Source: a virus (Duplodnaviria > Heunggongvirae > Uroviricota > Caudoviricetes). Taken from it: a stretch of DNA of 46,788 nucleotides. A program made the position numbers and the translations under genes. Below the pieces are notes generated by a model. That model saw only the letters and a program-made list of their open reading frames with translations, did not search any database and was not told where the DNA came from. Position 1 is the stretch's first letter. The number at the start of each line of letters is the position of its first letter. The stretch is from IMG/VR virus record IMGVR_UViG_2690315742_000007; one strand, given 5' to 3'. Shown here in pieces: positions 2,621-18,634 of the stretch.

Positions 2621-3211
2621 ATGTCTCAAATTTTTGCTTACTGTCGGATATCAACGCTGGATCAGACCACCGAAAATCAACGCCGGGAAATCGAAAGTGC
2701 AGGTTTTAAAATCAAACCTCAGCAAATAATCGAAGAACACATTAGCGGCTCAGCAGCAACCAGTGAGCGTCCTGGTTTTAACCGGTTGCTTGCTCGCCTG
2801 AAATGTGGTGATCAATTGATTGTGACAAAACTGGATCGCCTTGGTTGTAATGCAATGGATATCAGGAAAACAGTGGAACAACTGACCGAAACAGGTATCA
2901 GAGTGCATTGCTTAGCATTGGGGGGCATTGACCTGACCAGTCCAACAGGAAAAATGATGATGCAAGTAATTTCAGCAGTCGCTGAATTTGAACGAGACCT
3001 TTTACTTGAACGCACTCATTCCGGGATAGTAAGAGCCCGCGGCGCAGGGAAACGTTTTGGTCGACCACCTGTGTTAAATGAAGAACAGAAACAGGCGGTA
3101 TTCGAACGAATTAAGTCAGGTGTAAGTATAAGTGCCATTGCCCGGGAATTCAAAACCTCGCGGCAAACCATTTTAAGAGCCAAAGCAAAACTTCAGACAC
3201 CTGACATATAA
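2621..3211 (+). CDS. pinQ: Serine recombinase, PinQ/PinR type (resolvase/invertase family)
   Basis: 196-aa ORF; N-terminal catalytic-serine motif (YCRISTLDQ) and C-terminal HTH; same length as K-12 PinQ/PinR. Confidence 0.75.
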
Positions 3212-3308: not shown

Positions 3309-3884
3309 CTACGGCAGTGCTGGCCATTCAATATCCTGTGCAGTTGACGTATCAACACGGTTCAGCAATACCCGATACTTTTTCCATGCTTCCAGCAACG
3401 AGATTTCTTCCTCCGTTGCAATTTCCAGATCTGCAGCATCCTGAAGCGGCGCAATATGCTCACTGGCTACCTGCATCAGGTTGTTTTTTGTTTCTTCCGC
3501 CTCCCGGATCCGGAACAGTTTTTCTGCTTCCGTATCCTTCACCCAGGCTGTGCCGTTCCACTTCTGAAACTCCCCTTCCGGCGATAACCAGGTAACATTT
3601 TCCGGTAACGGACCGAGTTCAGAAATAAATAACGCGTCGCCGGAAGCCACGTCATAAACCGTTTTACCCCGATGATCTTCAACGAGATGCCACGATGACT
3701 CATCACTGTTGAAAACAGCCACGAAGCCAGCCGGAATATCTGGCGGTGCAATATCGGTACTGTTTGCTGGCAGACCTGTATGAGGCGGAATATATGCATC
3801 ACCTTCACCAATAAATTCATTAGTTCCGGCCAGCAGATTATAAATTTTTATGGTCCGTGGTTGTTCACTCATTCTGAATGCCAT
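3309..3884 (-). CDS. tfa: Tail fiber assembly protein
   Basis: 191-aa ORF directly downstream of stf; recognisable Tfa-family sequence (lambda tfa / TfaQ-like). Confidence 0.8.
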
Positions 3885-6800
3885 TATGCAAGCCTCACAA
3901 TATAGTTAAATGCGATGTTTTTGACGGTGTTTTCCGCGTTACCAGCAGCGTTAACGGTGATGGTGTGTCCATGTGAACCAATCGCAACGGAGTGCGTATG
4001 AGCACCAATACCGACAGTATGTGCATGTGCGCCTGCGCTTGCAGCAGTGCCGGACAGCGAGTGGGTATGAGCACCATCTGATGATGTCTTCCCTGCATTA
4101 CGAGTCTGGCCACTACCGCTTGTTGTGCTCATAATCCCCGCGCTTAGATTTGAAATCGCGGTATAACCATTAGGGAAAATGCTCGTGTTCGTGCCACCAA
4201 ATGCACCGGAACTCTTGTGTTGGTGCGCACCGGCACTATTTGCGGTCCCGCTAATACTATGGGTATGCGCCCCGGTGTTATTCGTGGATTTGGTTCCGTA
4301 ATCAAACGACGATGTGGTTTTCGTCCCCAAATCCGTACTGGATGCGCTGGCGCTGTGGGTGTGCGATTTAATGCCGTCCTGTTCCTGAGATAATACGGCC
4401 CGACCACTGGCGGGCTTGCCCTTAATCGTCCAGCCACGCATATCAGGGATCACGCCTGACGGATAAGCAACTGCAAGTTTCGGGTATGCAGATTTGTCAA
4501 AAGTCTGCCCCTGCATCAGGGCATAACCAGACGGAACGGTATCTGATGGCCACGGGATTGGTGCACCGACTGGATAAAACTCTGCAGGAGGATGAGCCGA
4601 GGTGTAAAGCTGCGCCCACGGCGACCAGTTTGCGTCGGTCGTATCCCGTCGTGAACGAATAAATGCCGGAGCATGAGCACCGCTTGTACCACTCCAGCCG
4701 ATGAGTAACTCACCTTCGCCAACGGCTGTCATCCCTTTCAGGTGAATGATATTTCCATACGCTGTTGGATATCCGTTGTTATACACCTCGTATAACTCAA
4801 GACCTGCTGCCCCCTGCGTATTGTCTGTCAGCGCGGTTACCCGACCTTTTGAAGCCAGATTAACTGATGATACTGCTGTTCCACCTGACGGTAACGCCCC
4901 GATCTCTGATGCCGTTGGCTTATTTCTGGAGTTATAGTCCCTTCGCCAGCCAGGTGAATAATCTGTTCCGTGATTAATATAGGTAAACTGGGCGTTAGTT
5001 GTTCCACCACCAGTGGAGGTGGTCGGTGTGGTAATGCGGATCGTCATCGCTGACTTTATCCCCATTACTTCAATGACAGCTCCGGCGAGATGAATATTAC
5101 CGCAGTCAGTATCAGTAATGATTTTATTATTGCCATAAGACCAGGAACCCTTGCACATCCAGTATGGATGGTTAAATGCTCCCTGAGAATCCAGCCACTC
5201 GATAAACTGTGCAGTCGTCCAGTTTCCTGTTGTTGTGCTTACTGACCCACCGAAGGCACGGCAGGCACCAATATTTTTCGTAAAGGTATCTTTGCCAGGG
5301 ATATCCGCACCGTTCTGATCTTTCTGCAGACGTTTCTCAGCATTGTCATTGGCTGCTTTTACTGCCTTTGGTGTCGCGGCAAGCGTTTCAGACGTGCTGT
5401 TGGTCGCGCTGCTTAGCTGGATTATCCCTTTCTGTGCTGTCGTTGCATCCTGTGCGGTGTATTTCCCGTTAGCCAGGTCATACGCGGCCTTAACGGCTTT
5501 TGGTGTTGCCGCCAGTGACTCGGAAGTGCTGTTAGTCGCACTACTGAGCTGTACTATCCCCTTTTTCGTCGTGCTCGCATCCTCAAGCGCCACGGCGGAT
5601 GCAATATCCTCTGCCCGTTTTGCTGCTGTCTCGGCGCGCGTTGCTGCGGATTCTGCCGTACTTTTGCTCTGTGCTGCCGCTGCCGCACTGCCAGCAGCCT
5701 CTGTCGCCTTCGTGGATGCCGTCGTGGCGCTGCCCCTCGCTGCTGACGCCTGTCTGGTCGCCTCATCTTTTGAAGCAGACGCCGATGATGCCGATGACGC
5801 CGCCGAACTGGCGGACGATGCGGCAGCCGTTTTTGAGGATTCTGCGCTGGTTTCCGACGCTTTCGCGTTCGTTTCGGATGTCTTCGCTGCGGAAGCAGAC
5901 CTCGCTGCTGCGCTGGCCTGTTCAGTGGCTTCGCCAGCCTTCGTTGTGGCTGTTGAAGCGGATGATGCGGCGCTTTCTGCCGATTTTCCGGCGGCGGTGG
6001 CACTGACTGCTGCCTCCTCTGCCTTAATGGACGCCTCACGGGCCGATGATGCAGCTGTTGTCTCAGAGTCTGCCGCAGCTGAGGCGCTCTGTTCCGCTGC
6101 CGTTTCAGAAGACCTGGCGTTCGTCTCGGACGTTTTTGCCGCCTTCGCAGAATTTGCTGCCGCCGTTGCCGAGGAAGCGGCACTACTGGCGCTTGATGAT
6201 GCGTTCGTTTCTGATGATTTCGCTGCCTCTTTTGAGGCCGCCGCATCCCGGGCTGAAGTGGCGGCTTCTGACGCTTTCGTCGTCGCAGTGGATGCAGAAG
6301 TGGCTGCTGATTTTTGTGACGCTGCAGCATTCGTTTCTGACGTTTTCGCGGCACCGGCACTGGTGGCCGCCGCGCTTTTTGAGGACTCTGCAGCGGCAGC
6401 ACTTTTTGATGCTTCAGTGGCCTTTGTTGATGCCGTTCCTGCGCTGGAAGACGCCTCCTGAGCCGACGTCGCGGCCTGTCCGGCTGACGTGCTGGCTGCA
6501 CGCGCTGAGCCTGCAGCATCAGTCGCATGGGTTGCCGCCTCACTGGCAGATGTGCCGGCATCACTGGCTGACTTCTTCGCGGCTGCCGTGTTCTGTGCCA
6601 CCGCGGACGCGTTACGCGCCACCTCTTCCACCATCAGTTCAAAACGGCGCAGAGCCTCCGGACGGGCATCATCCTCCGTCATGGCACCGAGAAAATCATT
6701 CAGCGTACCGGGTCGGGAATCTTCATACACGGTGATGGTCCCGGCATGTGACGGCGGGAATCCTTCCACCAACAGAATAACGCTGTACTGACCGTACTCA

Positions 6801-6958
6801 ACGTCCATGCTGTAACGCCCGGCTTCATCCGGATTTTCTGAGGCCAGCGTGTTCACCACCACCGTGGTGCTGTTACGTTTTGCTTTCAGCTGGATTGTGC
6901 AGTTCTGTACCGGTTTTCCTGTGCCGTCTTTCAGTACACCTGAAATCTTAACTGCCAT
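3884..6958 (-). CDS. stf: Side tail fiber protein; Ala/Ser-rich repeat shaft and His-rich C-terminal tip
   Basis: N-terminus [26 protein letters not shown] matches lambda Stf; start placed at the internal ATG of track ORF 3884..6964. Repetitive central region; C-terminal GAHTHS / HxH repeats typical of fibre tips. Confidence 0.8.
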
Positions 6959-7022
6959 ATTCACCCCACAAAAAAGCCCGCCTGAACCGGCGGGCTGTCA
7001 TAACACTGTGTTACCTGGCTAA

Positions 7023-7622
7023 TCAGAACTTATAACCGACACCCACGATGAAACCGTCAGTGCGCCAGTCGCCACTGCCGGAGCCTTCATAAGCAATATC
7101 AATGGCCACGGATTCGGTCGGGTTAAACTGCACGCCAGCTCCCCACGCCAGAGACGTGTTGCTGTGGCGACCGTCATCACTTCCGGTCAGCACGTCGTGC
7201 GTTTTCCCCTTGTTGTCAGTTACGCGGAGATAATCCCCGGAGAAAGTCGACACACGGCTGTAAGCCACACCCGCCATCGCATACGCGCTGAACCATTCAT
7301 TCACGCGCACAGACGGCCCCGCCATTACGCTGAACCAGCGATTACGAACGGAATCTTCATGCCAGCGGGTATCGCTGTAATGGGTCAGCTGGCGATTCTT
7401 GTCTCCTGCATAGCTGAATGACGTCACCAGCCCCAGCGTATCCGTAAACTCATAACGGTATTTCACGTTAATCCCGTTCAGATCATCACTGCCGGGAACG
7501 TTGGTCCGGGCATGAAGATACCCCGCGCTCAGCGTGGACTGATGTTCAGACGCCCATGCAGGCGCACCGGATACGGCCAGACAAATGGCTGCGGACAAAA
7601 TGGCTGCACAAACTTTACGCAT
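7023..7622 (-). CDS. lom: Lom-family outer membrane protein (Ail/Lom beta-barrel)
   Basis: 199-aa ORF with signal peptide and C-terminal ...GVGYKF beta-barrel end; sits between J and stf as in lambda. Confidence 0.8.
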   Translation of the reverse strand: MRKVCAAILSAAICLAVSGAPAWASEHQSTLSAGYLHARTNVPGSDDLNGINVKYRYEFTDTLGLVTSFSYAGDKNRQLTHYSDTRWHEDSVRNRWFSVMAGPSVRVNEWFSAYAMAGVAYSRVSTFSGDYLRVTDNKGKTHDVLTGSDDGRHSNTSLAWGAGVQFNPTESVAIDIAYEGSGSGDWRTDGFIVGVGYKF

Positions 7623-7692
7623 AATTACCTCTCGCTTTTCTGCAATAAAAAAGGCGTCATTCCTGACGCCATTTATTGGGGTTATAAATATT

Positions 7693-10600
7693 TCAACGAA
7701 TACTGATGCCTGAAGCCGCTTTTTTGGTCACAATCACCGTACAGTCGGTGATATTACCTGCCCGCTGATTGCCTTTATGGAAAACCTTAAACTCCAGAGT
7801 GACGCTTCCCCTGCCACTCGGCATATCAATAACCGCACTGTAGCTACCGGGAATGGCCCCTTTAGTTTCTCTGGATGCGATTAATACACCGTTTTTGCGA
7901 ACTTCAAAACCATAACCCGTGTATCTTGTACCTCCCGGGTTATTACCACTTCCCGGATCGCTATACGCTATTCCGTTAAAGATAATGGGCGGAATAATGA
8001 TTTGACGGTCAAAGTTATGATCATCGCTGATGGTGACTGTAACCGTCCCGTTTGGTGTTTCCGTGTTACCCCACGTACCAGCCTGTTTCGGAAATGATTT
8101 GGATACAGCTTTAACGAAGTCACCTCTGACCTGAGTCGCCTCCAGCATGCCCTTAATCGTACAGTTCTGGTTAATCGTGACATTGTTGAGCGTTCCTGAG
8201 TTCGCATTCACACTACCACTGATATCCGCATTTTTAGCGGTCAGCTTTCCGTCTGATGTCAGGGAAAATACCGGAGGACTGCCACCGCTGGTAATGGTGG
8301 GGGCTGTCAGGCGCTTCAGGAACACGTCGTTCATGAATATCTGGTTGCCCTGCGCCACAAACATCGGCGTTTCATTCCCGTTTGCCGGGTCAATAAACGC
8401 GATACGGTTAGCGGCAACCAGAAACTGGCTCAGCTTGCCTTCCTCCGTGTCCTCCATGCTGAGGCCAATACCCGCGACATAATGTTTGCCGTCTTTGGTC
8501 TGCTCAATTTTGACGCCCCACATGGCATTCCATTTATCGTTAGCGTCCTTCCACTCTTTCGAAAACTCATCCAGTCTGCTGGCGTTATCCTCCGTCAGAT
8601 CAACTTTTTCCAGCAGCTCTTTACCGAGATGGGATTCGGTTATCTTGCCTTTGAAAAAATCCAGGTAACCTTCCGCATCATCGCTCGCCCGACCGACGGC
8701 CTCCACGAATGCCGATTTGCCAACGGTGTTCACACTGCGGATATAAAAGTAATAATCATGGCCCGGTTTGATATTGATACTGGCGGCTATCCAGTACAGC
8801 GCCGTACCAAGATAGCGGGCTGTGGTTTCAACCTGCCTGATATCGGTAATCCGCTTTTCCGAGAACCAGAACTCAAACTGTACCGTCGGGTCATAAACGG
8901 CAAGATGCGGCGTGGCGGTTATCTGAAAATAGCCCGGCGTCAGCTCAATCCTCGACGGTGCTGCCGGTGCGGCAATCCGGAACGATACCGACGCCGGATC
9001 GCCCTGCTGCCCCCACGCATTTACCGCCCGGACTGTCAGCCTGTAGTTCCCTGGCGCCAGTTGCGTGAAGCGGTATGTGGTTTCCGCCGTCCGGGCCGTG
9101 CTGACCAGCCGCTCACTGCCGTCATCCGCTGCCACGGTCAGGCGAAGCATGAAACTCACGCCCTTCACCACCTTCGGCGTGTCCCTGCGGGCCAGCACCT
9201 GGTATTCCCCACTGTCTGCGGTGACTTCGGCAGTCAGGTGCTGCACCGCTGGCGGCGTGACACCATTCACCGTGCCGCTCTGGTCGCCGTCAAAGTGCGC
9301 CCCGTTATCCACGATGGCTTCTTTTTCCGGTACATGCTGCACGGCGGTGATGGCATACGTGCCGTCGTCGTTCTCACGGATACTCACGCAGCGGAACAGG
9401 CGCTGGCGCAGCGTCGGCAGCTTCAGCCCCCACACGCTGTATTCAGCAACGCCGTCAGGAACCCGGCTCACTTTCACCTTCACGCCGTCGGTGACGGACT
9501 GAACCTCCACGCTGACCGGATTGCCACTTCCGTCAACCAGGCTTATCAGCGTGGTACCGGAGGATGGCAGCGTGATTTCACGGTCGAGCGTCAGCGTCCG
9601 GGTCTGACTGTTTACCGCCAGCACGCGCCCGCCGGTGCTGATACCGGCATAGTCATCATCACAGATTTCAATGACATCGCCCGGCACATGGCGAAGCCCT
9701 TCGGCACCCACGCTGAAGTCCACCGTCTGCGTTTCCAGCAGCTCCGTTTTAATCAGCCACAGCCCGGCGCGGTGTGCCTGCCCCCGGCTGGTACAGCCAA
9801 AGGCATCCATCTTCGTGACGTTACGACCGTAACGGGCAATGGCCTGCGAGTCCTCCACAAGCTCTGTTGCCGTCTCCCAGCCGTTATCCGGGTCAATCCA
9901 GTTCACCTCAACGGCATTATGGCGGTCTTTCAGGGCGCTGAAGCTGTAGCGGAACGGCGCGCCATCATCCGGCATCACCACATTACTGCGGTTATAGGTC
10001 CACACCTTATCCGACGGTCGGTCCTGCACGAACGTCAGCGTCTGCCCGTTCCATACCGGCATACAGCGCATCGCCGAGCAGAAATCACTGAGCACATCCC
10101 ACGCCTTACGTTGTGTGGTCAGGTAAGCGTTACAGGTGATGCGCGGCTCCGTACCGCCAAAGCCGTCCGGCACCGACTGGTCGCAATTCTGGCCGATGAC
10201 ATACAGCGCCCATTTATCCACATCTGCCGCACCAAGACGTTTCCCCATGCCGTAGCGCGGGTGGGTCAGCATATCCCACAGACACCAGGCCATGTTGTTG
10301 CTGTATGCCGGTTTTAACGTTCCGTCCCAGATACCGCTGTATTGCCGCGTCTGCGGGTTATAATTCGACGGCACCTGCAGAATGCGCCCGCGAAGATGAT
10401 AATTACGGCTCACCTGCTGGCTGCCGAACTGCTCCGAATCCACCTGCACGCCGACCAGTGCCGTGTTCGGGTAGCACTGTTTCACATCGATGATTTCGGT
10501 GTATGACGACCAGAGCGTTTTGTTCTGCAGCTGGTCTGTGGTGCTGTCCGGCGTCATTCTGCGCATCCGGATATTAAACGGGCGCGGCGGCAGGTTATCC

Positions 10601-11106
10601 ACCACCACCGAGGCCAGATACTGCGAGGTGGTTTTGCCCTTAATGGTGATATCTTTTTCCGTCACCCAGCCACCATTACGCTGTATCTGAACCAGCAGGC
10701 GAACTTCCGACGGATTCCGGTCCCCCTTTGAGGTGGTTTCCACCAGTGCCTGCACACCGAAGGTAAAGCGCAGTCGGTCGATGTTTGCCGACGTGATGGC
10801 GCGGGTGATCGGCGTGTCGTATTTCACTTCCGTACCCAACACCGTCTCGGAGCCGGAGGATTCAAACCCCTCCGGCGGTGTCTGCTCCTGCTCACCGGCA
10901 CGGAACACCACCGTGACACCGGAGATGTTGGTATTCCCCTCAGTGTCCAGCACCGGCGTACTGTTCAGCAGCACGCTTTTTAATCCATCCACCGGACCTT
11001 CAACCGGCCCTTCGCTGATGGCATCGATCACACTCAGCAACTGCGTGGACTTCAGGTTGTCCTTCGCTTCGCGCGGGGTATGCCCCTTACTGCTTCCTTT
11101 ACTCAT
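7693..11106 (-). CDS. J: Tail tip / host specificity protein J
   Basis: 1137-aa ORF; N-terminal ~950 aa recognisably lambda J ([24 protein letters not shown]...); C-terminal ~150 aa differ from what I recall of lambda. Confidence 0.9.
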
Positions 11107-17664: not shown

Positions 17665-18060
17665 TCACATTTCATAGGTAATGACATAAGTCAGATCGGC
17701 TGAACTCCACAGGCCCGCATCATCGTCGCGCCGGTAGTCATAGCCGCTGGCCACCATACTGGTGATCAAATCTGACAGTGCCGGGATATCGCTCATCACC
17801 GGATAAATCCGGGACTCCATCCACGCATCCAGCTCTGAATCCGGCACCTGAGCAGGCAGGAAAACTTCGATATGCAGCTCCGCCTGCCAGGTATCGCTGT
17901 CCAGCTCTTCGCCCGTGTATTCAGCGCCGGTGAGATAAACGGCAACTGCCGGAAAATCCGCCTCATCAAAAACAGCGGGGCGACCATCAAAAAACGTCGC
18001 CCCGGTGTCATGCTTCTCCAGTGCATCCAGTACGGCTGCACGGAGTTCAGTATGTTTCAT
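17665..18060 (-). CDS. U: Tail terminator protein U
   Basis: 131 aa, lambda U length and sequence character. Confidence 0.85.
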
Positions 18061-18634
18061 CGCTTTATTACCATCCTCAGTTGATGCTGCAGCGCATAGC
18101 CCAGCTCTTTCGGAAGACGTTCACGCCGTATCCGCTCAATATTTTGTTTAAACGCCGTGGTCAGCGGCACCGCCATCGGGATTTTCACCACATCAATGGG
18201 GTAACGGTTTTTCCCGGCCACACGCTGCATGACATGCCACCGGCCATTTTTCAGTTGCTGAATAAACGCGCCGGGAATACGACGGTTACCCACCACAAGC
18301 ACGCTGCCGCCACCTTTCAGGGATGAACGCTGCCCCTTTTTACGACGCCTGCGGCGCGAAAGGACAACCCGCGCATTACCCAGCTTGATTACGGGCAAAT
18401 CCCCCGGTTAACTTTGATTCTGGCCTGCGGATTTTTGACCGTGGCCCTTTTCAGCCTGGCCCTTTCCTTTACCAGTTTCCGGCGTACCTTTGTCTCACGG
18501 GCAACTTGTGACGCCGACTGCGATATCGCGGATGAAGCAACGCGGTTAATGGCCATTGCGGCGGCACCAGGCACCGCCGTTTTGCTGATACGGCTGAGGT
18601 TTTCAACGGCCTGCTCAAGACCTTTTATGGCCAT
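18057..18634 (-). pseudogene. Z: Tail completion protein Z, split by a -1 frameshift in a G/C homopolymer
   Basis: Track ORFs 18389..18634 (MAIKGLEQ...KVNRG) and 18057..18398 (PVIKLGNARVV...) together cover a lambda-like Z but are out of frame. The join is a C5 run at 18401..18405 where lambda, as I recall, has six. Confidence 0.7.

Follow-up and report, generated by a model that had tools for sequence, protein, structure and literature searches.

The J locus and its neighbourhood

The stretch of DNA analysed here, which we call the window, is the whole 46,788-nucleotide sequence of the IMG/VR virus record IMGVR_UViG_2690315742_000007. It hosts a gene J on the minus strand, the features of which are collected in Table 1 together with those of its surroundings. 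The reading frame of 3414 nt is unbroken, and its C-terminal end reads as the original prediction had quoted it. J is flanked by an I-like tail assembly gene on one side and by a lom-like gene on the other, beyond which lie stf, tfa and a pin invertase gene. The gene order, ...H-M-L-K-I-J-lom-stf-tfa, was read from the list of open reading frames and from PGAP's annotation of strain A27, in which this region is identical; the genes of lambda and 434 are arranged likewise.

The protein is 100% identical to the RefSeq entry WP_047402630.1, 'phage attachment tail tip protein J', so this exact protein is already in RefSeq. All of the gpJ domains are present and in the lambda order (PF24801, PF13550, PF24421, PF24489, PF09327 and PF12421, all above the curated Pfam cut-offs). 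The Pfam names along the protein are FNIII-A_GpJ, Phage-tail_3 (hub), Ig_J, Ig_J_second, Phage_Tail_Tip (fibre) and Ig_GpJ_C. Pfam describes Ig_GpJ_C as 'Tip attachment protein J, C-terminal receptor binding domain', and its profile scores 90.4 bits on J, against a gathering cut-off of 26.2. On every feature tested, the J protein of the window is a member of the gpJ family.

Table 1. Features in and around the J gene, with positions given on the window
Feature	Position	Strand	Basis
Gene J, tip attachment / central tail fibre protein	7693..11106	-	1137 aa ORF; stop codon 7693..7695
J body, aa 1-973, lambda-like: hub domains, FNIII/Ig domains, helical shaft, straight fibre	8187..11106	-	Identity to lambda
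J C-terminal receptor-binding region, 434-type, aa 974-1137	7696..8186	-	Comparison with lambda and 434
Pfam Ig_GpJ_C within J, aa 1001-1136	7699..8106	-	PF12421, E = 1.3e-25
Terminator-like hairpin followed by a T-run, downstream of J	7653..7670	-	Pattern scan
lom, Ail/Lom outer-membrane beta-barrel, 199 aa	7023..7622	-	Pfam Ail_Lom, E = 2e-123
Mosaic block of ~1.08 kb, unlike lambda and matching 434: J 3' end, intergenic region and most of lom	7109..8186	-	Sliding identity, mismatch positions, three-way DNA alignment
Tail gene Z homologue	18057..18634	-	~99.5% identical to lambda Z; one G missing from a run of six near 18405, frame broken
stf, side tail fibre	3884..6964	-	Open, 1026 codons from GTG
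tfaQ	3309..3884	-	
pinQ	2621..3211	+	

Comparison with lambda J

The C-terminus of J is the textbook determinant of host range in lambdoid phages. A lambda-like body carrying a different C-terminus had been proposed for the J of the window, and the alignment bears this out. Against lambda J (J02459, 1132 aa) BLASTP finds 1009/1142 identities, and these are very unevenly spread. The protein identity is about 97% over residues 1-973 and drops sharply beyond them, to ~38-43% over the last ~164 residues, with three indels. For the last 162 residues the figure is 38.3% (tblastn, E = 3e-21). This fall from near-identity is far beyond chance, and the DNA mirrors it, with 95.5% identity to lambda over the body (8187..11106) and ~50% over the receptor-binding region (7696..8186). 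High identity to lambda J over the last ~150 residues, which would have marked a LamB-type receptor-binding domain (RBD) and argued against the original prediction, is absent.

Some details of the original prediction need adjustment. The change had been placed at about residue 950; the change itself is real, but the break lies at codon ~974, which is position 8186 of the window. The interval given for the divergent part, 7693..8150, holds most of it, but not all. Finally, the C-terminus had been said not to match that of lambda. This is correct in that the divergence is strong, but not if it is taken as a lack of relationship. The two C-termini are homologous, as the tblastn match, the shared Pfam family PF12421 and the predicted fold all indicate, and we have therefore rejected the idea that the C-terminus is unrelated to that of lambda.

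A structure prediction of the C-terminal domain had been suggested as a check. The AlphaFold2 (AF2) model of the RBD is all-beta, with a mean pLDDT of 80. It matches the lambda gpJ RBD (8xck/8xcj), the A8 gpJ (9wca) and the complex of A8 gpJ with OmpC (9wcb), with E-values of ~1e-15. The model thus has the Ig-like beta-sandwich fold that is expected of a PF12421 domain. The three indels relative to lambda (+2, +6 and -6 aa) are located between strands predicted in the AF2 model. This pattern is consistent with an Ig-like core that is conserved and carries altered loops, and the segments concerned may be receptor-facing loops, judging from the alternation of strands rather than from model coordinates.

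In summary, lambda J (gpJ; PDB 8xcj/8xck/8iyk) shares with J its domain architecture, its body, the Pfam family of the RBD and the predicted fold of that domain, whereas the RBD sequences and the lengths of the intervening segments differ. Lambda J binds LamB.

Match to phage 434 J

The closest characterized relative of the protein is the J of phage 434 (UMO75286.1 in OL657226). The two full-length proteins are 98% identical (1111/1137), with 0 gaps and 26 substitutions. The identity of the last 162 residues is 96.3%, compared with the 38.3% to lambda, and that of the DNA encoding the RBD is 92.7%. Alignments with lambda J and with an OmpC-type J, both of which had been proposed as a check, therefore give a clear answer: by sequence, the RBD is a member of the 434-type group. 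Given this near-identity, and the presence of the exact protein in RefSeq, we have rejected the possibility of a new class of RBD.

The J of phage 434 and the h434 allele of lambda h434 resemble the J of the window in further respects, namely the length of 1137 aa, the gap-free alignment, the downstream terminator and the 434-type lom. The J of the sequenced lambda h434 imm21 hybrid is also 1137 aa long. A difference is that the J described here sits in a chromosomal Qin-type prophage, whereas 434 is a free phage.

Within the last 162 residues six positions differ between the window and 434: S1004A, Q1007K, A1008V, N1019D, S1049D and R1099G (window residue first). In an alignment of protein-database members, variation among 434-type C-termini is limited to a dozen or so positions that change repeatedly (981, 983, 1004, 1007, 1008, 1019, 1049, 1050, 1099, 1108, 1110 and 1115). 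All six of the differences fall on these recurring sites, which suggests that the sequence is an ordinary allele. The exact C-terminal sequence of J is the head of a protein cluster with 263 members.

The nucleotide differences from 434 are also informative. In the RBD there are 28.5 synonymous and 7.5 non-synonymous differences. By the Nei-Gojobori method, codons 974-1137 have a dN/dS of 0.066 at a dS of 0.31, which indicates that the RBD has been kept by purifying selection. The 171 codons upstream of it have a similar dN/dS of 0.061, at a dS of 0.12. Over the whole of this stretch (7696..8700 on the minus strand), synonymous divergence from 434 is 2.5 times higher in the RBD codons than in the 171 codons just upstream, and this suggests that the RBD block has a separate and older history than the rest of J.

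A mosaic block spanning the end of J and lom

The similarity to 434 is not confined to J. The mosaic block listed in Table 1 continues through the intergenic region, where the DNA identity to 434 is 84%, and into lom. Over 7109..7622 lom is 95.7% identical in DNA to the lom of 434, compared with 51% for the lom of lambda. Below 7108, within the last ~85 nt of lom, the identity to lambda is back to ~90%. The phage 434 record carries an annotated terminator at the position equivalent to our terminator-like hairpin. From these comparisons, the receptor-binding end of J and lom form a single unit of lambdoid mosaicism here and are inherited together. On our best reading, the 434-type allele arose by lambdoid mosaic exchange of the whole block, comprising the 3' end of J, the terminator and most of lom.

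The likely receptor

Phage 434 and the hybrid lambda h434 are classical OmpC-dependent phages. Two papers (PMC11101478; PMC3509688), which cite Fuerst & Bingham 1978 and Hantke 1978, name OmpC as the receptor of phage 434 and of lambda with the J gene of 434. Taken together with the 96.3% RBD identity, this makes OmpC the most likely receptor of the J of the window. We regard the assignment as probable; it rests on the 96% identity to 434, with the six substitutions lying between the two proteins. The original prediction had argued for a receptor other than LamB, an interpretation that the relationship to an OmpC-using phage supports. OmpC was among the receptors that it named, and by homology to 434 is now the most likely candidate.

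There is a good structural precedent for how such a J protein might work. The C-terminus of lambda gpJ is an Ig-like domain that ends a trimeric fibre, and four bottom loops of this domain insert into the LamB trimer (PMC11101478). LamB binding spreads the three gpJ domains, and an opening signal passes up the fibre (PMC11101478). In addition, natural gpJ C-termini grafted on lambda J are sufficient to retarget particles from LamB to OmpC (bioRxiv 10.1101/2022.09.30.509847).

By analogy, the first ~973 residues of the J of the window would build a lambda-like tail-tip hub, an FNIII/Ig collar, a helical shaft and a straight fibre. The last ~164 residues would form a trimeric Ig-like RBD whose distal loops differ from those of lambda. 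In view of the homology to 434 and lambda h434, it is very likely that the three copies of this RBD together dock on the OmpC porin trimer, and not on LamB. Docking would then push the three RBDs apart, and the fibre would relay the opening signal to the tail tip. We infer this trigger mechanism from the lambda-LamB and A8 gpJ-OmpC complexes.

The lambda h434 imm21 hybrid might seem to offer a direct route to mapping OmpC specificity. However, lambda h434 holds a larger 434 segment, which includes J, lom, stf and b-region genes, and this is too large to pin the specificity on the last 164 residues.

Two further J proteins are instructive. The A8 gpJ chimera carries a natural prophage C-terminus on lambda J (PDB 9wca; 9wcb with EDL933 OmpC). 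It is the best PDB sequence match to the J of the window (E = 4e-97 over the last 262 aa) as well as a top fold match. It likewise has a J-type RBD, and for A8 the binding of OmpC has been shown experimentally and structurally. In the RBD proper, however, the identity is 46%, using the A8 sequence from the PDB alignment, which places A8 in a separate OmpC-binding lineage rather than in the 434 type. The second protein is the J of phi330, a long-tailed Stx2a phage. It too is lambda-like, with an RBD that targets OmpC as determined by knockout and complementation (PMC12502783), and in its authors' model a J trimer sits on the OmpC trimer (PMC12502783). According to the same authors its RBD is 35-40% identical to those of both 434 and lambda (PMC12502783), and it therefore belongs to yet another lineage.

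A search of the literature on ECOR13-derived PhiR phages and on 'h434' found nothing that bears on the J allele of the window. A 2026 preprint on receptor prediction does not cover lambdoid J proteins.

Do the six substitutions matter for specificity? One alternative is that the fold is of the 434 type, but that the six residues of the window allele redirect it towards one OmpC allele in particular, or towards another general porin such as OmpF or PhoE. Meyer and colleagues reportedly found in 2012 that lambda can gain the use of OmpF through just a few point mutations in the C-terminus of J, which we count in favour of such a shift. The variation among 434-type C-termini is concentrated at recurring sites, several of which lie in or beside segments between predicted strands. 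Furthermore, natural OmpC-binding gpJ variants discriminate between OmpC alleles: 1A2 takes the EDL933 OmpC only, and 1A2 and A8 differ in range (bioRxiv 10.1101/2022.09.30.509847). That said, six changes are few, and these are mostly conservative. The dN/dS of 0.07 gives no sign of diversifying selection across the RBD as a whole, and many E. coli prophages and Stx phages carry the same residues at these sites, as expected of an ordinary allele. We therefore consider a shift of specificity quite unlikely.

A related possibility is that the polymorphic sites of 434-type RBDs are tuned to different natural OmpC alleles, with six of them separating the allele of the window from that of 434. This we regard as unlikely. 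If it were true, the strain range of the window allele would differ from that of 434, and the family would record a co-evolution of J with OmpC. Our preferred reading is still that of an ordinary 434-type allele with OmpC as its probable receptor.

The host prophage

The whole window represents an extended version of the Qin prophage, integrated at ydfJ of E. coli. Its annotated gene content includes pinQ, tfaQ, cspB/F/I, relBE, hokD and dicABC, and its lambda-like module for head and tail is complete. The Qin of E. coli K-12 is not known to have such a module.

The side tail fibre gene stf is open in the window, with a lambda-like MAVKIS... start at 6958, and the middle part of its product is long, repetitive and rich in Ala, Ser and Thr. 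Strain A27, whose sequence is otherwise the same in this region, carries 2 additional nucleotides in stf, which is annotated there as frameshifted; the window is thus not from A27 itself.

The pinQ invertase gene adjoins tfaQ, but an invertible segment that could act as a host-range switch is not evident: no convincing inverted repeats flank a tail-fibre segment, the best pair being 20 nt long with 80% complementarity.

The prophage looks defective. The Z homologue has lost its frame through a 1-nt deletion in a G-run, and PGAP flags Z as frameshifted in strain A27 also. The lesion may be genuine, which would make Z a pseudogene of a cryptic prophage, or it may be a sequencing error in the homopolymer. 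Degradation is also seen in the early region, which contains part of an ISNCY transposase gene and ISSen4, and in which ydaT is truncated and xis frameshifted.

These lesions, together with the frameshifted stf of strain A27, raise the question of whether J, too, is no more than a relic, left inert as a cryptic prophage decays, with a C-terminus that no longer folds or binds. The J gene does not have the appearance of one. Its reading frame is intact and colinear with that of 434 without a single gap, its differences from 434 in the RBD are overwhelmingly synonymous, and the identical C-terminal sequence is the head of the large protein cluster described above. We consider it very improbable that J is such a relic. 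The protein may nevertheless never be used by the prophage of the window. It is more likely that J serves here as a reservoir allele for recombination with incoming lambdoid phages than as part of an infectious virion.

Prevalence and significance

The 434-type C-terminus is widespread. With thresholds of at least 90% identity and at least 80% coverage, 2091 (about 39%) of the 5426 complete E. coli genomes searched carry the C-terminal DNA of J. This DNA also occurs in 74 records of a phage collection. A tblastn search of the same collection with the C-terminus separates the matches into two groups, 74 records with at least 90% identity and 169 records with less than 60%. Most of the 74 are Stx1a- and Stx2c-converting phages; mEp460, Ayreon and 434 itself are also among them.

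The J of the window is a classical and very common 434-type allele rather than one of a new specificity type. It represents biology that is already known, the 434/OmpC variant having been known since the 1970s. Beyond correct annotation, the significance of this particular gene is small. Given its prevalence of about 39%, however, the 434-type J is one of the main J types in E. coli. The label '434-type, probable OmpC binder' helps with the prediction of host range for prophages and with the choice of RBD modules for engineered lambda particles.
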